Shown here one piece after another: positions 8,880-35,127 of a stretch of 58,194 bases of DNA. The DNA comes from an uncultured Candidatus Saccharibacteria bacterium (GTDB taxonomy: Bacteria > Patescibacteriota > Minisyncoccia > Phycocordibacterales > DATGWK01). The notes under the pieces were generated by a model that worked only from the letters and a program-made list of their open reading frames with translations, did no database searches and had not been told where the DNA came from. The stretch covers positions 1 to 58,194 of the forward strand of contig CAYRZH010000001.1 of the NCBI GenBank assembly GCA_964428845.1. The letters run 5' to 3'. Each line of letters begins with the position of its first letter. Positions within the stretch are counted from its first letter, which is position 1. A program made the position numbers and the translations under genes.

Positions 8880-8967
8880 GGAGAGTTGGCTGAGCTGGCC
8901 GAAAGCGCCTCACTGCTAACGAGGTAGGGTCTAAAAGCCCTCGTGGGTTCGAATCCCACACTCTCCG
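8880..8967 (+). tRNA. tRNA-Ser(GCT)
   Basis: GGAGAGT/ACTCTCC acceptor stem, anticodon arm CCTCA-CTGCTAA-CGAGG, long variable arm, GTGGG-TTCGAAT-CCCAC T arm, G73. Confidence 0.95.
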
Positions 8968-10484
8968 CAAATCGTAACTTCGCGTAAAGACAATGCGGAC
9001 GCGCGCCGTGATGGGCGCACGGCGCGCGACAATTTTCCTCGCCGCTTCGCGGCGAAATGGCTCGGCGGGGGGAATTCAAAAAGGGCGGATTTGTCACGAA
9101 CCCGAGGGTTCGTTCCGATTTTTTGGACGAACGACTTGATTTCGTGCAAATTGTCCGATGTCGCCAAAAAATCGGCTTGTTTCGTATCTAAAATCCATGC
9201 CCGCAGGGGTTCGACCCAATTTTTCTTCCCGCGTTCAAAATCTTTCATTTTGGCTTGCAAAGACGCAGAGGCGCGCATGATGTCGTCTTTCTTGGAAAGG
9301 TAGATTTGTTTCGGCACTTCGCCGTCAAGATACACGCTCACCAGTTTTTCCATGCGCGTCTCTTGCGCTTTGATTTGAGAAGAAAGATTTTGAACCTCGC
9401 TCCCCGTAGTGGCGGATTCCTCGCGCTCCCATTTCTCGACTTCCGCCAGCATCCAGTCCGTGTAGCGTTCGGGGAGCGAGATTGTTTGAAGCCGTGCCTT
9501 GATTTGCTCCGCTAAATCTTCTTCGCGCAGATATGGTTGCGAACAGCGACCGCGCTTTTTGGAACAGCGATAATACCGATATTTCGTACCCCAGCGATTG
9601 ACCGCCCATTGCGCGCTTATCATCGAGCCGCACTCGGCACAACGGAATAGTCCGGTAAATGGAAAATCATGCCGAGCGCGGCGGTGGCGCGGCCGCTCTT
9701 TCGTTTTCAAAATCTTTTGCACGGCTTCAAACAATGCGGGAGAAAGAATTGGCTCAAAGTTTCCATCAAACCATTCGCCCTTGTGCTTCACGAAGCCGAT
9801 ATATGCTCTGTGCGTCAAAAGCCGTTTGATGGAAACTTTGGCAAGTGGCGTTCGGTTTTTTGAGACCACGCCGAGTTCCGCCAAAAATTGCGCGAGAGAA
9901 ACGAACGAGTGTGCGCCTTTCGCGTACTCCTCAAAAGCAAGACGGACAATCCGCGCTTCGGTGGGGTGCGGCTCAATATTGCGAATATGCGGATTGTTTT
10001 GATACCCGAAAGGCGCAAGTCCGAGCCACTCTTTCCGGCGCAATTTTTGGCGGATTCCACGCTTGATATTCTCGGCAAGATTGTCCGAATAGTATTTGCT
10101 CTGACCGAACGCCACTTGCAACATAAAGAGCCCCTGCGGGGTCGGTTCAAACCAAAATGTCGGAAAGCGCAAAGACACCACCTTGCGCGTGTCTACGGCG
10201 TAAATAACCCTGCCTCCGTCAATAGAATTACGCGCAAGGCGATCGGGATGCCACGCCAATATCCCGAAATTGTCGCCACTCTCGATTTTTGCCATCATCT
10301 CGCCAAACACTTCACGCCCCGGTGTCTTTGCGCTTTTTGACTCTTGAAATTCCGCAAGAATTTCAAGATTTTCTCTACGCGCATACTCACGAAGCTCAAA
10401 GAGTTGAGCTTCAATAGACATCACTTGTCTATCATCATCTTCGGTGCTTTTTCTCGCGTAGAGAAAATATTTTGGTTTGTTCAT
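8931..10484 (-). CDS. Large serine recombinase (resolvase + recombinase + Zn-ribbon domains)
   Basis: YARKST catalytic Ser motif, DRLAR, GLAPFGY, GLFRCAECG..YYRC zinc ribbon; 3' end runs antisense into tRNA-Ser. Confidence 0.93.
   Translation of the reverse strand: MNKPKYFLYARKSTEDDDRQVMSIEAQLFELREYARRENLEILAEFQESKSAKTPGREVFGEMMAKIESGDNFGILAWHPDRLARNSIDGGRVIYAVDTRKVVSLRFPTFWFEPTPQGLFMLQVAFGQSKYYSDNLAENIKRGIRQKLRRKEWLGLAPFGYQNNPHIRNIEPHPTEARIVRLAFEEYAKGAHSFVSLAQFLAELGVVSKNRTPLAKVSIKRLLTHRAYIGFVKHKGEWFDGNFEPILSPALFEAVQKILKTKERPRHRRARHDFPFTGLFRCAECGSMISAQWAVNRWGTKYRYYRCSKKRGRCSQPYLREEDLAEQIKARLQTISLPERYTDWMLAEVEKWEREESATTGSEVQNLSSQIKAQETRMEKLVSVYLDGEVPKQIYLSKKDDIMRASASLQAKMKDFERGKKNWVEPLRAWILDTKQADFLATSDNLHEIKSFVQKIGTNPRVRDKSALFEFPPPSHFAAKRRGKLSRAVRPSRRASALSLREVTICGECGIRTHEGF
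8965..9095 (+). repeat. Inverted repeat A, left copy (131 bp)
   Basis: Exact reverse complement of 10506-10636, checked base by base. Confidence 0.97.
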
Positions 10485-10505
10485 AATTGGTTTTGATACG
10501 AAACA

Positions 10506-10794
10506 GACAAATCCGCCCTTTTTGAATTCCCCCCGCCGAGCCATTTCGCCGCGAAGCGGCGAGGAAAATTGTCGCGCGCCGTGCGCCCATCACGGCGCGC
10601 GTCCGCATTGTCTTTACGCGAAGTTACGATTTGCGGTGAAATATTACACTTTGCGCGAACCTTTTTTGAGGGGAACTGACCCGCCTCCGCTTCGCTCCGG
10701 CGGGAAGCTCGGGCGCGGCGGGATTCCTCCCCCCAACCCCCTCCTCCCGCCGCGCCCTCGCTTGAATGCAATCCGGCGAAAAAATGCGGCTCCA
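10506..10794 (-). repeat. Central 289-bp junction: inverted copies of A (10506-10636) and B (10631-10794) sharing the core
   Basis: Matches 8965-9095 and 13012-13175 in reverse complement. Confidence 0.97.
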
Positions 10795-10879
10795 GATTGA
10801 GAAAAGAATGGAAAGTTGATATAATTCTACTGCAAGTCATAAAATGTATTATATCATTTTCCATACATTATAATCTACT

Positions 10880-11080
10880 ATGTCCACAATAGGCAAAAAC
10901 ATCAAACGATTTCGACAAGAAAAAGGGCTTTCGCAAGATAAGCTATCAAAACTGGCCGATTTGTCTTTGAATACGGTCGTAAAAATTGAGTTGGATGATA
11001 GCCCCAACCCCACTATTGAGACAGTTCAAAGGATTGCGAAAGCCCTTGAGGTGTCGGTTGATGAATTATTAAAAAAATAA
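10880..11080 (+). CDS. XRE-family HTH transcriptional regulator
   Basis: IKRFRQEKGLSQDKLSKLADLS..IE..PNPTIETVQRIAKALEV. Confidence 0.93.
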   Translation: MSTIGKNIKRFRQEKGLSQDKLSKLADLSLNTVVKIELDDSPNPTIETVQRIAKALEVSVDELLKK

Positions 11081-11084
11081 AAAT

Positions 11085-11489
11085 ATGGACAACGAATCAC
11101 TTATAAAAACAGCAGAGGGCGTTCTCAACCGACACACGGATTCAAACGGGCGCTTGCACGGCGATGTTGGAGCGGCAATCCTTGGCAGAAATGGGAAGAT
11201 GTATACCGGTGTATGTGTTGATACGCCGAGTTGGGGTTTGTGTGCCGAACGAAGCGCGCTCGCCACGATGATTACTGATCGAGAGTACAATTTCAAAAAA
11301 GTCGTTGCCGTGTGGAAAGACGACAAAACCGGCAAACTTCATGTACTAGCGCCATGCGGCCACTGTCGCCAATTTATGCGTGACATCAGCGAAGAAAATA
11401 TGGAGGCGGAAGTGTTGCTCGGACGCGATAAGTCCGAACCTCTAAAAAATCTAATTCCGCATCACGAATGGCCGGAGGCAATTGAATAA
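11085..11489 (+). CDS. Cytidine deaminase-family protein
   Basis: VGAAIL, CAE and PCGHCRQ zinc motifs. Confidence 0.88.
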   Translation: MDNESLIKTAEGVLNRHTDSNGRLHGDVGAAILGRNGKMYTGVCVDTPSWGLCAERSALATMITDREYNFKKVVAVWKDDKTGKLHVLAPCGHCRQFMRDISEENMEAEVLLGRDKSEPLKNLIPHHEWPEAIE

Positions 11490-11493
11490 AATT

Positions 11494-12330
11494 ATGCCAG
11501 AAGAACAGCAACAAGAAGAAATAAAAATTGATCAGTACCTAGAATCACCGAAGGCGTTTCATCTTGAGATGCCTCTCTATCATGCGCTTGATTTGAGCAT
11601 TGGCGTAGTTGCGGAAAAAGTTTTTGAGCACATTGCTCACTCGGGGACAATGGATGCCTATTGTATTTGGTGCGACAAAGAAAGTGTTTTTGATGCCGAG
11701 GAATATGTATACGGTAAAACATACGGGGCTTGGAAGCGTGAGGATTTTGGATTCAGACGAAACTCCTACAAGTGTACTCGCAATAATAATCATCGCTACT
11801 ACATTTATTTTTTCAAAGGCAAGGATGTTCTTATGAAAATCGGTCAATGGCCATCTGTAGCTGATTTTCAGATTCCGCAAGCAGAAAAATATCGGAAAAT
11901 CCTCGGCGAAGAAGAGTACAAAGAGCTCACGCGCGGTATCGGGCTTTCGGCGCACGGCGTTGGTATCGGCTCTTTTGTCTATTTACGCCGAGTTTTTGAA
12001 AATCTGATTGAGGAGGCCCATCAAAAGGCGAAAACCGAAGACGCATCATTTTCGGAGGAATCGTACGCACGAGCGAGAATGGACGACAAGATTGAAATGG
12101 TACAGGAACACTTGCCAGCGTTTCTCGTCGAGAATAGATCGCTCTACGCAATTATGAGTAAAGGCATTCACGACTTGACCGAAGATGAATGCCTGCAGTA
12201 TTTCGAGACAGTAAAAATTGGCATTGAGCAAATCCTCGACGAGAAAATTATTGCTAAAGAGAAAGCTGACAAAGCAGCCGCCGCTCGCGCCGCCATTCAA
12301 AAAGCACACGGCAAAATTAATGGGTCATAA
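11494..12330 (+). CDS. Hypothetical protein (possible DUF4145/HEPN-like C-terminus with N-terminal Cys pair)
   Basis: CIWCDK; GIGSFVYLRRVFENLIEE; LSKGIH-like segment; family not confirmed. Confidence 0.6.
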   Translation: MPEEQQQEEIKIDQYLESPKAFHLEMPLYHALDLSIGVVAEKVFEHIAHSGTMDAYCIWCDKESVFDAEEYVYGKTYGAWKREDFGFRRNSYKCTRNNNHRYYIYFFKGKDVLMKIGQWPSVADFQIPQAEKYRKILGEEEYKELTRGIGLSAHGVGIGSFVYLRRVFENLIEEAHQKAKTEDASFSEESYARARMDDKIEMVQEHLPAFLVENRSLYAIMSKGIHDLTEDECLQYFETVKIGIEQILDEKIIAKEKADKAAAARAAIQKAHGKINGS

Positions 12331-12874
12331 AATGAATATACTCGGTTTACAACGCGGAATAGTGCGTCTTGAACCACACAATCCCGAATGGCGGAAACTT
12401 TTTGAAACGGAAAAATCGGCTTTGCAAAAAATTCTTGGCGACAAGTTTATCGCCGCCGAGCATGTCGGCTCAACCGCCATTCCCGACCTTAAAGCAAAGC
12501 CGATTTTAGATTTGATGTTGGCAATACCGGATTTGGATGATTGGGAGTGGCTCAAAGAGCCGCTCGCCAAACTCGGCTACGAGTTTCGCCGCGACTTTAG
12601 AAACGAACAAGGACATATTTTGTTCGTGAAAGGGCCGGAGGAAAACCGAACGCACTATCTTAAAATAACCGAACTCAATTCCGACTTTTGGACGGAACAC
12701 ATTTTGTTTCGCGATTATCTCGTCAATAATCCGCAGTACCGCGAGGAATACCAAAAGTTGAAAGAAAATCTGTTTGACTCTCACGCGGGCAACCGCGAGC
12801 CGTATACGAAAGGTAAAGAGGAGTTTGTGCGGAAGATTCTCAAACTCGCAGGATTCAAGGGCAAAGTGCTCTAG
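12320..12874 (+). CDS. GrpB/UPF0157 family nucleotidyltransferase-like protein
   Basis: EHVGSTAIPDLKAKPILD, FRDYL, Y..GKEEFV. Confidence 0.88.
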   Translation: MGHKMNILGLQRGIVRLEPHNPEWRKLFETEKSALQKILGDKFIAAEHVGSTAIPDLKAKPILDLMLAIPDLDDWEWLKEPLAKLGYEFRRDFRNEQGHILFVKGPEENRTHYLKITELNSDFWTEHILFRDYLVNNPQYREEYQKLKENLFDSHAGNREPYTKGKEEFVRKILKLAGFKGKVL

Positions 12875-13011
12875 GGAGCCAACCCCGCCGTTTTATAATT
12901 TTCTTCAAAACGGCGGGTTGATTGTGCGCGCACTGGGCGGGAGGGGAGCACAATACCAATTTTGTATCTTGCCATTCAGTTTTGATAAAATGGTATGGCA
13001 AGATTCTTTTT

Positions 13012-13175
13012 TGGAGCCGCATTTTTTCGCCGGATTGCATTCAAGCGAGGGCGCGGCGGGAGGAGGGGGTTGGGGGGAGGAATCCCGCCGCGCCCGAGCT
13101 TCCCGCCGGAGCGAAGCGGAGGCGGGTCAGTTCCCCTCAAAAAAGGTTCGCGCAAAGTGTAATATTTCACCGCAA
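13012..13175 (+). repeat. Inverted repeat B, right copy (164 bp)
   Basis: Exact reverse complement of 10631-10794. Confidence 0.97.
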
Positions 13176-13220
13176 TGACCGCGCAGGATGTCTGCGCAGC
13201 AGATATCCGAGCGGGCATCG

Positions 13221-13349
13221 TGCGGATGCGGGATTCGAAAGCCGGAGCGAAGTTGCGATGTGAGCAAAGCGAACCGCAACGAGCGAGGCGGGGTCGCGCA
13301 AAATTTGCGAAGCAAATTTATGCGTGACCGAATCCCACACCCTCCGCCA
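13221..13349 (+). repeat. Hairpin element with tRNA-Ser-3'-end-like arms
   Basis: TGCGGATGCGGGATTCGAA (antisense-like tRNA tail), conserved hairpin ending GTGACC, then GAATCCCACACCCTCCGCCA (sense tRNA tail). Confidence 0.8.
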
Positions 13350-13415
13350 TATTGGCAACTTTGAACCTAAGTAAAATAAGGTTCATTTAGCCAAAAATTA
13401 GTGATATTGTTTACT

Positions 13416-14948
13416 ATGGTCATAATCCTCAATTTCGGAAGCCAGTTTGCCCACCTTATAGCAAGGCGCGTGCGGGATCTCGGCGTCAAAGCCGAGATTT
13501 TGCCTTTTGGTGCTTCGGCGTCTGAGATTTTGAAGCACAATCCTGCCGGTATCATTTTCTCTGGAGGGCCTGCATCTGTGTTGGAGAAAGATAGTCCTCG
13601 ACCAGACAAAGAAATATTTAAGCTTGGTATTCCAGTTCTTGGCATCTGTTACGGGCACCAAGTTATGGCACACATGCTTGGTGGTAAGGTCGTTAAGGGT
13701 AAGCATCGAGAGTTTGGCAAAGAGATCTTGAGTATTAAAAATAAGAAAGGAATTTTCCAATCACTTTCTTTAAAAGAGGTCGTTTGGTTCTCTCACGGTG
13801 ATCAAGTATCTGTACTACCGAAAGGACTTAAGCAAACAGCATCTACTACTGGCTGCAAATATGCCGCGTTTGCCGATTCAGAGAATAACTTCTACGGAAT
13901 TCAATTCCACCCAGAAGTAACTCACACTCGGCATGGAGAAAAGTTACTCAAAAATTTCTTGTTCTCAATCTGCAAGGCCAAGAAGAACTGGAAAATCAGT
14001 TCAGTAACAGAAAATATTATTGCAGAGGTTAAGAGTGAGGTTGGAGATAAGCATGTCGTAGTAGGCATCTCTGGGGGTGTCGATTCGTTAGTAGCCGCCA
14101 CGCTTATCCATAGGGCTATTGGCAACAATCTCCATGCGGTGTTTGTAGATACCGGTCTACTACGCAAAGGAGAGGTGAAACAGGTGGCCTCCTATCTGCG
14201 TAAGCATGGATTCAAGAAGCTTCATGTAATTGACGCAAGCCAGCTTTTCTTAAAACGATTAAAGGGCATTTCTGATCCGGAGCAAAAACGAAAAATTATC
14301 GGCCACAACTTTATTGAAGTATTTGAAAAGACGATTAAGAACGAATTCAAAAAGCATACGATCGTGTATCTCGCTCAAGGCACCATTTACCCTGACCGCA
14401 TAGAATCCGCTTCAACCTCTAAAACGGCGGCGAAGATCAAAAGCCACCATAATCTTACGCTTCCTGAAAAGATGGGCTTTAAGATTCTCGAACCAATAAA
14501 GGATTTATACAAAGACGAGGTGCGACGAGTAGGGCTAACTCTTGGACTACCGAGAGAGTTACTTTGGAGACACCCGTTCCCGGGTCCTGGGCTTGCTGTT
14601 CGTATTGTCGGAGAAATTACCGAAGATCGTCTCCGAATCCTTCGAGAGGCTGATGCTGTATTTATTGAAGAATTAAGAAAGGCTGGAGAATACGAAAAAA
14701 TATGGCAAGCATTTGCCGCACTGCTTCCAGTTAAAGTGGTTGGTGTTATGGGCGATGGCCGAACCTACGAATATGTAATAGCCTTACGAGCGGTTGACTC
14801 CATAGACGGAATGAGTGCAGATTGGCACAAAATCCCCAATGAACTTCTGGAAAAGATATCGAGTACGATTATCGGAAAAGTGCGAGGAGTAAATCGGGTG
14901 CTTTACGATATCACCCAGAAACCACCGGCTACTATTGAATATGAATAA
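13416..14948 (+). CDS. guaA: GMP synthase (glutamine-hydrolysing)
   Basis: NFGSQFAHLIARR, GICYGHQ, QFHPEV, SGGVDS, HPFPGPGLAVR, KPPATIEYE. Confidence 0.97.
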   Translation: MVIILNFGSQFAHLIARRVRDLGVKAEILPFGASASEILKHNPAGIIFSGGPASVLEKDSPRPDKEIFKLGIPVLGICYGHQVMAHMLGGKVVKGKHREFGKEILSIKNKKGIFQSLSLKEVVWFSHGDQVSVLPKGLKQTASTTGCKYAAFADSENNFYGIQFHPEVTHTRHGEKLLKNFLFSICKAKKNWKISSVTENIIAEVKSEVGDKHVVVGISGGVDSLVAATLIHRAIGNNLHAVFVDTGLLRKGEVKQVASYLRKHGFKKLHVIDASQLFLKRLKGISDPEQKRKIIGHNFIEVFEKTIKNEFKKHTIVYLAQGTIYPDRIESASTSKTAAKIKSHHNLTLPEKMGFKILEPIKDLYKDEVRRVGLTLGLPRELLWRHPFPGPGLAVRIVGEITEDRLRILREADAVFIEELRKAGEYEKIWQAFAALLPVKVVGVMGDGRTYEYVIALRAVDSIDGMSADWHKIPNELLEKISSTIIGKVRGVNRVLYDITQKPPATIEYE

Positions 14949-15993
14949 AGTTATGGAAAAACAATCTCAACTAGTCGGTAATTTTAGTGAGACGGTTTCG
15001 GTTACGAAACTGTTTTTATCTGAATTTGAAAAAGTCTTTGGAAATACGGAAATAAAAAAGTCGTTACCAACAATAGAGGGAGTCTACATGTACGCGATCA
15101 TTATGCATTTAGGGAAGATTTATAGTAAATCATCAAATGAGCATTTTAGTTTGGATAAATTTAAAAATCTCTTTCCAGAAACTACTGAGAGGGTCAACAA
15201 AATGTATGATGATCACAAAGATATCATTGGAAAAGTTAAAAGTAACCGGGATAAGTTATTTGCGCATACCGACAAAGATTTTTTAAAGTTAGGTTTTTCC
15301 CAAGCACACATTGATAAACTAAAGAGTCTTTATCAAACTGACTTTTCTCGTATTAAGGCGACCGGGAAAGAGCGAGAACGATATACCCCGTTAGATCTTA
15401 ATGATGATTTAGCTGAAATTAAACAGATGTTACAAGAAGCAGACAAATTATGGTGGGACTGTATTATGTTGATTGATTTTGAAAATAAACAAAATGTTAA
15501 AACAAGTGACTTTGAAAATGTATTTTGGGATCTTTTATTTACTTATCGACAATTGTTGCTAAATGGAAATTTACATAAGAGAGTAAATACCGAGGCTTAC
15601 CAAAAGAATGCCGCTACATGGAGTACTATACTTCTCAGTTTAGAGACTGGGGTTGTACTTGGCTTAGCAAAATTACTTGAAAAGAGTTATTTTGGAAGAA
15701 AGTTTGATAGTCAGGAATTAAATCAAATCTCTGAAAAAATTATCAATATGCGGAATCGTCTTATTGCTCATAATGATCTTTCCGTAATGCGAAACAAGAA
15801 ATCCTTTCTCGAAGAGAATCAATTAACGGGTACAGATATTATTAACATGATCGACGCTTTGAAAAGGAGAGCTATTCAATATCAACTAGCATTTAATGCA
15901 AAAATTGAAGTCCAAAAGCTATTTGAAGAAACTACTAGAAATGCTATGGATGACCTCGATGATTGGCTAAGGTCTTTCAGAATGCCGCTGTAG
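14941..15993 (+). CDS. Protein with two AbiU2-like HEPN domains
   Basis: Repeated pattern MHLGKIY..RDKLFAH.D and LGLAKLL..RNRLIAH.D; visibly AT-rich. Confidence 0.6.
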   Translation: MNKVMEKQSQLVGNFSETVSVTKLFLSEFEKVFGNTEIKKSLPTIEGVYMYAIIMHLGKIYSKSSNEHFSLDKFKNLFPETTERVNKMYDDHKDIIGKVKSNRDKLFAHTDKDFLKLGFSQAHIDKLKSLYQTDFSRIKATGKERERYTPLDLNDDLAEIKQMLQEADKLWWDCIMLIDFENKQNVKTSDFENVFWDLLFTYRQLLLNGNLHKRVNTEAYQKNAATWSTILLSLETGVVLGLAKLLEKSYFGRKFDSQELNQISEKIINMRNRLIAHNDLSVMRNKKSFLEENQLTGTDIINMIDALKRRAIQYQLAFNAKIEVQKLFEETTRNAMDDLDDWLRSFRMPL

Positions 15994-21388: not shown

Positions 21389-22489
21389 ATGAATAATAAA
21401 GGAATCGTTAGCACAACAATGCTTGCGGTTATCGTGTTGGTGCTGGTTCTCGTCGGCGCTGGAACATATTTTCTTTTGAATAAGGACGGTGCGTCACCGA
21501 GTGGGAACCCGATTGCTACGTCGACTCCTATCACGCCTACACCGCCCCCAGGGACATCAGCGCCGATCAATATCACCGGCGAGATCACATGTCTACCGAA
21601 AAAAGGCTCCGGGCCACAGACTTTGGAATGTGCCATTGGGCTCAAGGGAAACAACGGTTTGTATTATGGTTTGAAAAACCTATCCCTTTACCCCAACTTT
21701 GCAATCTCTACTGGGACTATGGTTGAAGTCTCCGGAAATTTTATGGCAGAAGAAATGTTTGGCCCGGGTAACTCAAGATACGACATAGCCGGCACGATCG
21801 ATATCACATCAATAAAAGAGGTCTCAATCTCCCCTCCCCCAGGCCAAATTGAAAAAATATCCTTGAAAGAGGGAGAGCGCGAGAGTTCGTTTTTACTACA
21901 AAAAATATATCCTGATCGAGTCACGGGTCTGAATTATATGGAATATCCGGTAGCAACTGGACAAGGGACAGCGGTGACTTTACGCATCGGTGAAAGCGTT
22001 AGTAATGGCTGTACAGTAGTCCTTACCCTTACAAGCATCGAAGGAAATGTTGCAAAATTCAATAAAAAGGTAGACGAGAATCAACCTTGCCCAATATGCC
22101 TCGCAGAGGGTACATCGATCGATACACCACAGGGACCTATGCCAGTAGAAAAGTTACAAAAAGGGATGAGTGTCTGGACCTCTAATGCGGCTGGCGAGCG
22201 TGTTTCCGGAGTGATAATAAAAACATCAAAGACCCCCGTACCTGAAACTCACAGGGTAGTTCACGTTGTGCTCGAAGACGGACGAGAGGTCTATGTCTCG
22301 CCGGGTCATGATACAAAAGATGGTCGAAGAATCGGCGACCTCGTGGTCGGCGACATCATGGATGGCAGTCGCGTAGTAAAGCTCGAATCACAAACTTACC
22401 AAAAGGGCTACACTTACGACATCCTCCCATCTGGTCAAACGGGATTCTACTGGGCTGGCGGAATCCTACTCGACAGCACGTTGCGCTAG
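21389..22489 (+). CDS. Surface-anchored protein with a C-terminal Hint domain
   Basis: Pilin-like N-terminus (KG.VS..ML) plus TM helix and Pro/Thr linker; C|LAEGTSIDTPQG..V..L.KG..VW; HDTKDG; TYDI; no terminal HN. Confidence 0.78.
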   Translation: MNNKGIVSTTMLAVIVLVLVLVGAGTYFLLNKDGASPSGNPIATSTPITPTPPPGTSAPINITGEITCLPKKGSGPQTLECAIGLKGNNGLYYGLKNLSLYPNFAISTGTMVEVSGNFMAEEMFGPGNSRYDIAGTIDITSIKEVSISPPPGQIEKISLKEGERESSFLLQKIYPDRVTGLNYMEYPVATGQGTAVTLRIGESVSNGCTVVLTLTSIEGNVAKFNKKVDENQPCPICLAEGTSIDTPQGPMPVEKLQKGMSVWTSNAAGERVSGVIIKTSKTPVPETHRVVHVVLEDGREVYVSPGHDTKDGRRIGDLVVGDIMDGSRVVKLESQTYQKGYTYDILPSGQTGFYWAGGILLDSTLR

Positions 22490-29593: not shown

Positions 29594-30052
29594 GTGGCAG
29601 ACTTGGTACAAAACAAAAAAGCGACCCAGAACTACGAAATCATGGACACTTTCATTGCCGGGATCGAGCTTTTTGGCTTTGAAGTAAAAGCTCTCCGAGC
29701 ACATCTTGGAAAGTTGGACGGGGCGCATATCACGGTGCGCGGAGGTGAAGCGTACCTCATCGGGGCGTCTATTCCGGCTTTTCAGCCTAAAAATGCGCCG
29801 GCAGGATACGAGCCGACACGCAATCGCCGACTTCTTCTAAATAAAAAGGAGATTGGAGAACTTGCCGACGTAGAGTCGCGCGGAGGCAAAGGAGGCAACT
29901 TGACAATCATCCCCATTTCGATATATAATGTGGGTCGGTTTATAAAAATAAAGATCGCCAGCGCGCGCGGTCGCAAAAAGCACGATAAGCGAGAGGTAAT
30001 CAAGCGTCGCGACAGTGCTCGCGACGTCGAGCGCGAGCTTCGAGATCGTTGA
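29594..30052 (+). CDS. smpB: SsrA-binding protein
   Basis: NKKA..NY, AGIEL.G.EVKA, R.RRLLLNKKEI, RGRKKHDKR. Confidence 0.96.
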   Translation: MADLVQNKKATQNYEIMDTFIAGIELFGFEVKALRAHLGKLDGAHITVRGGEAYLIGASIPAFQPKNAPAGYEPTRNRRLLLNKKEIGELADVESRGGKGGNLTIIPISIYNVGRFIKIKIASARGRKKHDKREVIKRRDSARDVERELRDR

Positions 30053-30298: not shown

Positions 30299-30703
30299 GG
30301 GGATGTCAGTTTTGACAAGGAAATCAAACTGATCGGTGCAAAGCAGAGCTCGAGTGACTCTCAAATCCGCTCGAAACACTAGGTGCAAACAATCTAGTTG
30401 CCAAAGCAAAGTCATTGGTTTCTCCATATTTTGGAAAGACCGACTTTGCCTTCGCTTACGCTTCGGCCTAAGCGACGTCGCGCTGGTCTCGTCTGAGAAA
30501 CTAGTTGCGGTGTCATAAACTTCAGACTGGAGCATGTTCCCTTCCCGGCTCATGCTCGAGACGTTTCGGGAATCGGTGCGTGGATGTTTTGTTTGTTTTA
30601 TAGTCCACGCCCCTAGATCCGCCTTCGGCGGAAAAAACATACTACGCTTTGTAGATTCAGATCGGTTTCTTTCTTGGACGCGAGTTCGATCTCGCCATCT
30701 CCA
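30299..30703 (+). ncRNA. ssrA: tmRNA
   Basis: 5' GGGGATG pairs with 3' CATCTCC-A; T-loop GAGTTCGATCTC; tag ORF GCC AAA..GCC TAA ending FAYASA; next to smpB. Confidence 0.93.
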
Positions 30704-30708
30704 CAACA

Positions 30709-30746
30709 AAAGAAAATGCCCGCATAAATGCGGGTGTTTTCTTTTG
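30709..30746 (+). terminator. Rho-independent terminator after ssrA
   Basis: AAAGAAAA-TGCCCGC-ATAAAT-GCGGGTG-TTTTCTTT. Confidence 0.75.
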
Positions 30747-30755
30747 TCTGACGTC

Positions 30756-30878
30756 GAGATGGCGAGATCGAAAGGCGGAGCGAATGCCGAGCGAGCACGC
30801 GAGGCCGCGAGCCGGGGTAGCGGAAATTTTCGAGCGACGGCGAGAAAATTATCCGTGACCAATCTCGCCATCTCCACA
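30756..30878 (+). repeat. Hairpin element with tmRNA-3'-end arms
   Basis: 30756-30772 is the exact reverse complement of 30685-30701; 30862-30878 is a direct copy of 30689-30705; GTGACC precedes the direct copy. Confidence 0.88.
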
Positions 30879-30976
30879 TTCATCCTTTTAGGATGCCACG
30901 GAGTATCGTGGCATCACAGAAATCAAACAAAATACCGCTCTAAATAGGCGGTTTTTTGTTGTTTAGGTTTCTAAAC

Positions 30977-31005
30977 TTGACATAAAACTTATGGTATGCT
31001 AGCAT
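30977..31005 (+). promoter_or_regulatory. Sigma70-type promoter
   Basis: TTGACA-17 nt-TAGCAT with an extended TG. Confidence 0.65.
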
Positions 31006-31399
31006 GTACTAACGAAATCACTGTTTGCGGCAACGCATTCGGGTGATAGGGTACCGAGTCATCGTTTGCAGATCGTGCACTCGGTGATGGAGATCTGGTC
31101 CTCTATGAGCAAGGCGACCCCTTGCTGTATGACCAGCGCTAACATGGGGAAAATAGCTTGTGCGTAAGCTACCCCAGGCGAAAAACGGGGCGTGGGACGC
31201 ATTCCCACCACCCCTTTTCAAACAAGCCGGGAGCTCGCGCGTGCGAGCCCCGGTTTTTTCTTTACAAAAGAAGCCAACTTGCGCTGGCTTCTGAAAGAAC
31301 TACTTAACTACAGCTTCAAACAATCACCGTTCCGAGCTGGAGACAGTCCGGGGCTCCGTGGACTGATCTGTCTCGGCGAGCTGTGTACTGATCCTGTAA

Positions 31400-31438
31400 G
31401 GGTCGCGCAAAATTTGCGAAGCAAATTTATGCGTGACC
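31400..31438 (+). repeat. 39-bp hairpin identical to 13291-13329
   Basis: GGGTCGCGCAAAATTTGCGAAGCAAATTTATGCGTGACC present at both loci. Confidence 0.95.
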
Positions 31439-31566
31439 AATCGAGCCATCTGTTCGGTTTTTAAACAGTTGACATAATAAATACTCATGATATAATACCA
31501 ATTAGAAGTCAGTTGCACGAGACCGAGCGTGGAATCGTGGCTGTATTAACAAAGAAGGAGAAAACA

Positions 31567-32196
31567 GTGAACGTTAAGAAACCGTCCGCCAACATGACTG
31601 CGTTCGTGCTCATCGCTTGTTCCACTTTGCTCGGCTTCATCTTCGGTCTCATCAAGGGTGAGGACAACCTCAACAGTGTCCAGTACGCCCTCGACAGCAT
31701 GATCGCCAAGGAGAGGGCTGCCACGGAACAGCGGCAGATCGTAAACGACCTTATGCGGGTCGCTCGGAACACGGATTTCCTCCGGGAAATGCCTCAAGAC
31801 CAAGCGATGCTCTGGACCACCATGGTCCAGATGGCAACTCCGAGTCCGGAAAGTTCAGCCACCACGGAGTGGAGTCCTGGCGTCGTACCGATCGCCGTTT
31901 CGATCAGCGAGCCAGAGACCGGCATTTCCTGTCACGTCATCGTCGGCACAGTCGACACGACCGGCATGAATAACTCCAACCTCCGATCGGTGTCGGTCAA
32001 ACCGTGCCTGGTCTACTACATCGGCGCAAGACCCGGTCAGACTTTCCGCTTCGACAACTTGAACAACATGTCGACGGCGAGGTACTACAGCGGTTACGGC
32101 ACAGGCTATGTCAGATTCGAACAGGATTTCGATCCTGCTCCGATGGCTGACATCACCAGGCGCCTTCTCACCACAAAGTTCATCGGCAACAACTGA
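31567..32196 (+). CDS. Hypothetical membrane-anchored protein
   Basis: AAGGAG before GTG; one TM helix; promoter TTGACA-16-TATAAT at 31469-31496; terminator near 32220-32250. Confidence 0.78.
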   Translation: MNVKKPSANMTAFVLIACSTLLGFIFGLIKGEDNLNSVQYALDSMIAKERAATEQRQIVNDLMRVARNTDFLREMPQDQAMLWTTMVQMATPSPESSATTEWSPGVVPIAVSISEPETGISCHVIVGTVDTTGMNNSNLRSVSVKPCLVYYIGARPGQTFRFDNLNNMSTARYYSGYGTGYVRFEQDFDPAPMADITRRLLTTKFIGNN

Positions 32197-32800: not shown

Positions 32801-32990
32801 AGGGATTGCCGGACACTCGATCCACCGCAAGAGATTCGCGAGATTCACACCTCCGAGACTATTGCGGTTTTTTCTTTCTCTCACCCTTGCATTTTCCCCC
32901 AAGATAAATCGTTAATTTGACAATTAAACATTATATTGTTATTATTCACCCGGAAGATTTTCGTTACCATCACACTCGTAAAAGGAGAAC

Positions 32991-34120: not shown

Positions 34121-34206
34121 TGTTTTTCTTTCCCCCCACCCTTGCATTTTCCCCCAAGATAAATAGCATAGACCCAGAACTCGCATATAAAAACAGGAGG
34201 TTTCAA

Positions 34207-34572: not shown

Positions 34573-34708
34573 CGCCACCCACATCGTACGCCCCCCGCGT
34601 TCGATGTTTTCTTTTGCTTTTTTTGACAAGACGTGTATTATACCGTCCAGTTCTGTACACTAGAAACATAACCCTTATCTCCCACGAGGAGAGATCGGAG
34701 AGATAATT

Positions 34709-35077: not shown

Positions 35078-35127
35078 ATATTAGTCTCCCCACATCGTAC
35101 GCCCCTGCGTTCGATGTTTTCTTTTTC

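Follow-up and report, generated by a model that had tools for sequence, protein, structure and literature searches.

Downstream of the tmRNA gene of an uncultured Candidatus Saccharibacteria bacterium lies a short hairpin element that probably belongs to a family of small, non-autonomous insertion cassettes located behind tRNA and tmRNA genes in Patescibacteria (CPR). The ends of such genes are classic landing sites of mobile DNA and, to our knowledge, their known occupants are kilobase-sized islands with an integrase of their own. As judged from Rfam 15 and the searchable literature, the target class of these cassettes, their three-way-junction body, their arms derived from the local gene tail, their size and their host phylum are apparently new; the principle itself has precedents in hairpin att sites and in cassettes that stand beside a fixed site.

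The tmRNA-linked element and its family

The stretch of DNA analysed here (the window, 58,194 nt) is chromosomal DNA of the Paceibacterota, with genes for a type IV pilus, RecG, FtsH, SmpB, guaA and a ribosomal-protein operon. Its full-length tmRNA gene (ssrA; 30299-30706, plus strand; Rfam RF00023, 104.2 bits), which was not called in the ARAGORN run on the window, is preceded just 5' by the gene of SmpB (29594-30052, Pfam). The 3' end of the tmRNA, ATCTCGCCATCTCCACA (30689-30705), recurs exactly and in direct orientation at 30862-30878, and GAGATGGCGAGATCGAA (30756-30772) is the exact reverse complement of 30685-30701. An earlier note on this DNA, made from the letters alone, had described a hairpin with exact 17-nt antisense and sense copies of the tmRNA tail after the terminator, and the repeat search, the shuffles and the fold prediction all bear this description out. 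The tail 17-mer, with up to three mismatches allowed, has three matches in the window versus 0.14 expected, a number reached in none of 100 shuffles; together with the 65 homologous copies described below, this rules out chance or an artefact.

The first tail copy, the terminator and the inverted arm form an 88-nt near-palindrome (30685-30772), across which inverted repeats with 31-nt arms at 81% and 20-nt arms at 90% are detected. In the predicted fold of 30750-30880, a three-way junction of -63 kcal/mol (z = -5.3), positions 30753-30768 pair with 30862-30877 to give the stem P1, leaving 93 nt between the arms (Table 1). The inserted unit of this copy measures 173 bp, contains no ORF and scores 106.8 bits with the covariance model of the family. 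The earlier note had also suggested looking for an associated enzyme, but no recombinase for the element was found among the 27 window ORFs scanned: neither a tyrosine recombinase nor a transposase is encoded by them, and the only recombinase is the serine integrase of a separate island. Without a recombinase of its own in the window, the element, if mobile, is therefore non-autonomous.

Table 1. Positions in the window of the three element copies, their parts and the associated genes and insertions
Feature	Position	Strand	Remarks
tRNA-Ser(GCT)	8880-8968	+	host gene of copy 2
Later insertion	8971-13169		about 4.2 kb; not part of the element; divides tRNA-Ser from copy 2
Copy 2, full element	13214-13351	+	'long P2' subtype; tRNA-Ser-like arms; covariance model 130.4 bits
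tmRNA tail, copy 1	30685-30705	+	T-loop, 3' T-stem strand and 3' acceptor strand; source of both arm sequences
Terminator palindrome	30706-30747		intrinsic, bidirectional; core stem 30719-30734; between tmRNA and inverted copy
5' arm, inverted tmRNA-tail copy	30753-30772	+	exact over 30756-30772; 5' strand of stem P1
Conserved body	30773-30861	+	about 90 nt; junction CGAAAG, P2, GG, P3; from fold, covariance model and covariation
Hairpin P2	30774-30813	+	many tandem G-A
Hairpin P3	30816-30860	+	GGGGU..AAAUUAUCCGUGACC
3' arm, exact direct tmRNA-tail copy	30862-30878	+	tail copy 2; 3' strand of P1
Native tmRNA downstream flank	30879-30962	+	hairpin 30892-30915, terminator 30934-30952; homologous to the flank in L195
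Partial third copy	31400-31455	+	covariance model 32.3 bits; P3 hairpin 43/44 identical to that of copy 2

When one genome per species was scanned with a three-motif pattern, 71 loci matched; 15 of these, from 14 MAGs, hold the full architecture, the remainder being chance matches in GC-rich genomes; the labelled carriers of the full loci are Saccharibacteria, Paceibacterota and Taylorbacteria. A two-motif scan of metagenome contigs gave at least 120 loci, with about half of the matches listed being real. The covariance model, built from 14 copies, recognizes 65 copies in the window and the collected loci, in Patescibacteria wherever a label exists, and among them are copies selected by neither pattern, again behind tRNA genes (tRNA-Arg in L049 and tRNA-Val in L032). 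These copies, with units of approximately 125-175 bp across the family, support the claim of the earlier note that this is a repeated, non-autonomous element with a conserved body. No Rfam 15 family matches the element at the gathering score, and a search of 30700-31600 at E values of up to 10 yielded weak terminator-like matches only. Pattern scans and phage BLAST of viral contigs and phage records revealed no real copy, free or viral, and literature searches found no description of such an element.

The bodies linked to tmRNA genes have a median identity of 81% across loci, compared to 38% for pairs linked to different gene types. They occur in MAGs labelled Saccharibacteria and Paceibacterota and are absent from closer relatives of the window, a patchiness that argues for target-specific spread. 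Copies sharing one locus usually resemble each other no more than they resemble copies from other loci. Recent bursts are thus not indicated, and concerted evolution within genomes is not general.

Gene linkage, arms and insertion sites

Of the 58 testable copies, about 56 follow a tRNA or tmRNA gene in the same orientation. The body therefore does not occur mostly away from tRNA-like genes, which would have refuted the proposal of the earlier note. Within 120 nt upstream, such a gene is found on the same strand for 49 of 64 covariance model hits; most of the other hits are later units of arrays, copies at locus edges, or copies whose host gene was missed by ARAGORN, namely a tmRNA in L133 and a tRNA containing a group I intron in L118. 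In this last locus (1592-2092), the intron-bearing tRNA (Rfam, 78 bits) is followed by a terminator and then by a full element, the direct arm of which copies the tail of the 3' exon. The sole orphan is a full element with T-arm-like arms in L141 (3432-3564), upstream of which neither ARAGORN nor Rfam detects a tRNA or tmRNA. The host genes comprise tmRNA and 15 tRNA identities (Ser, Leu, Arg, Gly, Tyr, Lys, Val, Asn, Pro, Glu, Met, Ala, His, Asp, and Cys), and the element is present at 50 of the 77 genes (about two thirds) in the sampled loci, a proportion biased by the selection of each locus for at least one element. Exact tail copies of at least 12 nt are found downstream in sense orientation at 30 of 86 genes and in antisense orientation at 17, versus none in upstream windows of equal length at the same 86 genes. 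The orientation of the body is always that of the host gene, which rules out an invertible segment or shufflon.

The arms track the gene that they follow. In 33 of 43 elements, one arm or both show an exact match of at least 12 nt to the local tail, compared to 0.06-0.24% of comparisons with non-cognate tails of other tRNA types. The claim that the arms mirror the nearest tRNA or tmRNA tail, which was to be abandoned if they did not follow the local gene, has thus withstood this comparison. Within the T-loop, T54/T55 is invariably the last position of the inverted arm, which is found in nearly all copies, and C56 is invariably the first position of the direct arm. Usually a single arm is exact; 7 of the 43 elements, the first copy in the window among them, have two exact arms. 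Direct repeats in the family span 17-24 nt; exact direct arms reach up to 23 nt, entering 3-5 nt into the gene trailer, and exact inverted arms up to 28 nt, continuing the terminator palindrome, with a near-perfect palindrome arm of about 45 nt in L049.

When 39 elements are compared without gaps, the tail is matched by both arms at 78% of positions in the zone of the T-loop and T-stem. In the acceptor zone, the direct arm equals the tail at 70% of positions and the inverted arm at 51%, and the two arms are complementary at 37%. No excess of compensating changes between the arms was detected among these 39 elements. The two arms therefore track the gene independently of each other, and conservation of P1 is restricted to 8-12 bp; in the first copy of the window, a C.C mismatch stands in the place of pair 1:72. 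A tRNA-like minihelix mimicking a substrate of RNase P, RNase Z or the CCA-adding enzyme, for which a conserved 12-bp helix of acceptor and T-stem would be expected, is discarded on the same figures, given that distal pairing is not conserved and acceptor complementarity is low. The antisense regulator considered in the earlier note finds no support either, in view of that low complementarity, the intervening terminator and the lack of a promoter. As a general rule, a primer-binding site or a retro-copy of a mature tRNA is likewise excluded, because both arms run into the trailer and the terminator and not into CCA.

Several direct copies hold CCA after the discriminator where the functional gene has none, as in the second window copy (13338-13345; CTCCGCCA compared to CTCCGCAA in the gene), L032, L129, L142, L143, L202, and L203; this extra CCA could be the ancestral gene end or a copy of a mature tRNA. 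Another frequent difference between arms and tail is a 4-nt inversion, CTCG to CGAG (window 31441-31455, L087, L091, L143, and L170), as in AATCGAGCC compared to GATCTCGCC, or GGACGAGAA compared to the exact GGACTCGAA. Inversions of this sort are a signature of hairpin-templated mutation.

Empty sites in relatives, which the earlier note had suggested looking for, are present at both the SmpB-tmRNA and the tRNA-Ser-guaA loci. Relatives by FtsH (77-83% identity) retain the SmpB-tmRNA synteny, and three of the four syntenic loci (L194, L195, and L197) have the tmRNA without the element; the tmRNA of L195 is followed by a flank with a hairpin and a terminator, the homologue of which in the window is 30890-30960, beyond the direct copy. 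In relatives by GuaA (approximately 90% identity), tRNA-Ser stands directly before guaA with the site empty, and the flank GATTGGCAACTTTGAACC.. that directly follows tRNA-Ser in L205 has its window homologue, TATTGGCAACTTTGAACC.., after the direct arm of copy 2. On these alignments, the DNA past the direct copy is the native downstream flank at both window loci. What the window has and the relatives lack is the unit of tail, terminator, inverted arm and body, whose boundaries are clean at the tail in both loci. Since the native flank follows the direct copy, the direct repeat is most likely a duplication produced by insertion into the 3' segment of the gene, as in ordinary elements that target tRNA genes. 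The earlier proposal that the element acquires locus-specific inverted arms from its target is therefore modified, with the direct copy being the duplication of an insertion and only the inverted copy being unusual. For the latter, the template-switch origin that was also proposed is possible, because the inverted arm continues the terminator palindrome.

Some copies form arrays. L087 holds a perfect tandem duplication of the tail-terminator-arm-body unit; its final tail precedes another, presumably native, terminator. Further arrays exist in L126, L129, L136, and L143. Other cassettes carry cargo. At the tRNA-Arg gene of L203, the order is tail, a 93-aa membrane ORF, terminator, inverted arm, a reduced body and tail, and in L196 a promoter and a small ORF stand between the tmRNA and a decayed element. 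The tRNA-Ser gene of L203 is followed by an 18-nt tail repeat with copies 19 nt apart, which looks like a deletion remnant, and L202 and the first unit of L126 exhibit the same architecture with unrelated bodies. Adjoining the tmRNA locus with the cargo cassette in L196 is a gene for a 301-aa reverse transcriptase (RVT_1; 610-1515). Between the tRNA-Ser cassette and guaA in L202 (1330-2990), a methyltransferase gene and two HNH genes are flanked by a direct repeat of about 25 nt (AACTAAGTATYGGAGTGACYCGAGTA), which makes this segment another small island.

Fold of the body and possible modes of action

In the alignment of 65 sequences, standard pairs occupy 96% of the cells and both-side changes occur at 18 of 24 pairs, values reached by none of 500 shuffles and compared to 35-46% pairing in control structures with slid partners; as this alignment was fitted to the covariance model, the figures lean towards the model, and an independent MAFFT/RNAalifold run agrees with it. 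One pair is G.U throughout, and two others switch between G.U and G-C (GC43/GU13/AU5/other 0; GC40/GU14). Such pairs would be A.C on the opposite strand, and A.C never appears, so the folded strand is the tRNA-sense one. The base of P2 holds conserved tandem G-A motifs (GGAGCGAA / GAGYGAG), P3 is a conserved AU-rich stem with a bulged A, and the junction nucleotides of the body are invariant. The same G.U pattern contradicts a fold of the minus strand, which disfavours a minus-strand RNA despite a weak promoter-like match on that strand (30876-30848) that overlaps the conserved AAATTATCC. A coding body is excluded by the lack of a start codon and by length differences between copies that are not multiples of three. 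No sigma-70-like promoter for the element was found, gene and element are divided by a canonical terminator at the inspected loci, and downstream of most copies a terminator is missing; these features fit a DNA site better than an RNA gene. GC skew was uninformative as to the lagging-strand template.

Folded single strands acting as recombination sites are known elsewhere: the folded attP(+) of CTX phage reproduces dif, and the attC hairpins of integrons recombine with attI. The target of the cassettes is probably the segment of tRNA and tmRNA genes from the T-loop to the 3' end, with an inserted unit that consists of one tail copy, a terminator (elsewhere a cargo ORF or RNA), a partial or full inverted tail copy and the body. 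The gene would thereby be left intact, with the second tail copy staying at the far end before the native flank as a direct repeat. In the three-way junction of the tRNA-sense strand, P1 joins the inverted copy to this second tail copy; by analogy with attP(+) and attC, the fold, most likely of single-stranded DNA, would be the recombination site of the cassette, in which P1 reproduces its own target duplex. A recombinase provided in trans may then exchange one pair of strands, with replication completing the insertion. The order that follows integration through a hairpin att site is site, cargo, inverted site, a loop of about 90 nt and site; the observed order is the same, which supports reading the fold as that of a single strand. 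Such target mimicry would account for the inverted copy, the direct repeat, the strand-specific fold, the missing transcription signals, the arrays, the cargo and the empty sites. It is nevertheless put forward tentatively, as a mechanism that falls somewhat short of being probable. A third of the copies hold a perfect inverted arm of 17-28 nt beside a decayed direct arm, for which mimicry has no explanation; a palindrome-templated correction at the terminator, added to explain these long perfect arms, is plausible. Counting against target mimicry are also the short conserved length of P1, which is little for a site bound by two recombinase monomers, and the invariant junction and tandem G-A motifs, which resemble an RNA tertiary or protein-binding motif more than they do attC, a site of little sequence conservation. 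The lack of an associated recombinase, of free or viral copies and of recent bursts weighs in the same direction, and the absence from relatives could be due to precise deletion between the direct repeats and not to recent insertion.

An alternative is a structured non-coding RNA gene, transcribed in tRNA sense by read-through of the terminator and acting either in the metabolism of tRNA and tmRNA or as a guide-like RNA of the element that pairs with both target strands, comparable to IS110 bridge RNAs or TIGR tandem-spacer guides. The strong covariation with strand-specific G.U, the invariant junction nucleotides and tandem G-A motifs, and an orientation that is always that of a highly transcribed gene would be natural for such an RNA; the arms track the target independently, as guides would, and RNA-guided systems reading both DNA strands are known in CPR bacteria (PMC12045711). 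An RNA gene is rather unlikely, however, in view of the terminator that precedes the element, the lack of a promoter and, in most copies, of a downstream terminator, and the failure to match any Rfam family even at E values of up to 10. In addition, the arms pair mutually and are not exposed in loops, no Nop, DEDD or other effector is encoded beside any inspected copy, and the many copies per genome, with their pattern of insertions and empty sites, are unusual for an RNA gene. A related idea, considered quite unlikely, is that of a retargetable module, in which one scaffold of RNA or single-stranded DNA would hold two arms reading both strands of the gene end, so that an arm swap would redirect insertion to any tRNA, in line with the 15 identities and tmRNA observed. 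This would be a guide-like, target-templated system of site-specific insertion that depends on a putative enzyme acting in trans.

The cassettes might instead be remnants of ordinary double-stranded att sites, either decayed attR-side ends or cis-mobilisable leftovers of larger integrative elements with a T-loop crossover. The body would then correspond to the arm-type region of attP, where proteins bind, and the inverted arm would have no role. Direct repeats from the T-loop to a few nucleotides past the gene end, as observed here, are reportedly typical of integrases that target tRNA genes; the insert brings its own terminator, tandem accretion occurs, and integrases do target these genes in the same genome. 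This origin is nonetheless very unlikely, since no integrase is encoded beside any inspected copy and the units are complete at their small size, one body stands behind tmRNA and so many tRNA identities, covariation with one-sided G.U changes is unexpected for double-stranded binding sites, and the inverted arm is near-universal with a fixed end in the T-loop. Alternatively, an immobile cis element could have been made in place, with a template switch at the terminator palindrome producing the inverted copy, slippage or gene conversion the direct copy, and selection maintaining a REP-like or terminator-insulator body. The inverted arm is indeed an in-register continuation of the terminator palindrome, as with the long arm of L049, usually one arm only is exact, and the 4-nt arm inversions point to hairpin-templated mutation. 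Such an origin is highly improbable, because it leaves unaccounted for one conserved 90-nt body behind many genes in many genomes, as well as the cargo cassettes, the clean empty sites and the constant junction positions.

Like the attP(+) of the CTX-phage IMEX, the element holds two inverted, target-like sites about 90 nt apart that fold into a target-mimicking stem, and both share the post-integration order of site, rest of the element, inverted site, loop and site. However, these IMEX are phages or plasmids of single-stranded DNA that use dif and XerC/XerD, whereas the element targets tRNA and tmRNA 3' ends and has no phage genome, with units down to 173 bp; moreover, its apex is a conserved three-way junction and different copies mimic many targets. 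With integron cassettes, it shares an imperfect hairpin formed by one strand at the 3' end of a non-autonomous cassette, and tandem arrays beside one fixed site, with units that are empty or bear an ORF (promoterless in integrons). Contrary to attC, it lacks the RYYYAAC/GTTRRRY core sites, its arms being derived from the T-loop (..GGGATTCGAA / CGAATCCC..) with GTTRRRY in neither. It duplicates 17-24 bp of the host gene instead of 7 bp, its body is strongly conserved, its arrays are headed by a tRNA or tmRNA gene, and no IntI, attI or Pc was found (27 window ORFs scanned). Genomic islands and CIMEs at tRNA and tmRNA genes likewise exhibit insertion between the T-loop and the 3' end, a direct repeat of the tail, a replacement tail with terminator and tandem accretion, but the element is 10 to 1000 times smaller and free of an integrase, adds an inverted tail copy and a structured body, and places one body family behind many tRNA identities.

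MITEs, REP/BIME sequences and Rickettsia palindromic elements are also small, repeated, non-coding, hairpin-forming and non-autonomous. In that class, nevertheless, the terminal inverted repeats are the same in every copy and the target duplications measure 2-10 bp, unlike the copy-specific arms of the element, which match the local gene tail, and its duplication of 17-24 bp. The possibility of one nucleic acid pairing with both target strands is shared with the bridge RNA of IS110 and with TIGR-Tas guides, and TIGR-Tas-type systems occur in parasitic bacteria, CPR included (PMC12045711). The guides of these systems, however, are 4-9 nt long and lie in loops by box C/D-like motifs with the effector adjacent, whereas the arms of the element measure 10-28 nt, pair with each other, correspond to the same target stretch and have no adjacent effector; neither a DEDD recombinase nor a Nop-domain Tas protein is present among the scanned window ORFs.

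If the fold is a target-mimicking single-strand recombination site, the principle of attC and CTX would be extended to a new target class and phylum, and an undiscovered recombinase would be expected; if it acts as RNA, it would represent a new and widespread class of CPR RNAs. In either case, the element offers a handle on the gain and loss of small cargo beside tRNA genes in the tiny genomes of CPR bacteria, and it explains duplicated tRNA tails, long palindromes and similar oddities met in annotation.

The serine-recombinase island and other window features

The second window copy (Table 1) folds like the first one (-56.6 kcal/mol, z = -4.8). The earlier note had placed the same body at tRNA-Ser, with tRNA-Ser-like arms; the nature of the arms is correct, but the site is not directly at the gene, where 8969-9140 holds no similarity to the body. 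Copy 2 stands 4.2 kb from tRNA-Ser(GCT), a gap for which exact repeats account. The core CCGCAA of an island is found at the end of tRNA-Ser (8965-8970) and again at 13170-13175. The island encodes a large serine recombinase on the minus strand (8931-10544; Resolvase, Recombinase and Zn_ribbon_recom domains), a cytidine-deaminase-like protein, a 282-aa ORF without assigned function, and GrpB. Positions 8965-9095 are the exact reverse complement of 10506-10636 (131 bp), and a second exact inverted pair links 10631-10794 to 13012-13175. Both the start and the end of the recombinase ORF lie inside the 131-bp repeats. The internal junction at 10506-10794 has the appearance of an intact, inverted attP, a sign of an inversion or perhaps of a mixed assembly.

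According to these repeats, the island is inserted at the very 3' end of tRNA-Ser(GCT), at a later time than the element. With the island subtracted, the CGGAGCGAA motif of the copy 2 body starts about 70 nt after tRNA-Ser(GCT), the usual spacing in the family, so copy 2 belongs to this gene. The idea that the element serves as an integrase decoy gains no support here, since the serine integrase has inserted between the gene and the element and not into the supposed decoy. In the partial third copy, P3 is followed by decayed sequence that resembles the tmRNA tail (AATCGAGCCATCTG).

Some other features of the window were observed. Between the first and third copies, a candidate independent ncRNA of about 230 nt lies within 30977-31258, with a good promoter (TTGACA-17-TAGCAT), a strong predicted fold and a terminator of its own (31233-31248). 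Rfam gives no match to it, and the loci collected contain no homologue. Past the tmRNA region, short direct repeats of about 40 nt form two pairs with 93-95% identity (32869-32909 / 34123-34164 and 34578-34615 / 35089-35125). The window also encodes a HEPN AbiU2-like protein, a candidate abortive-infection gene product (14935-15993), and a Hint-domain protein (21389-22489).
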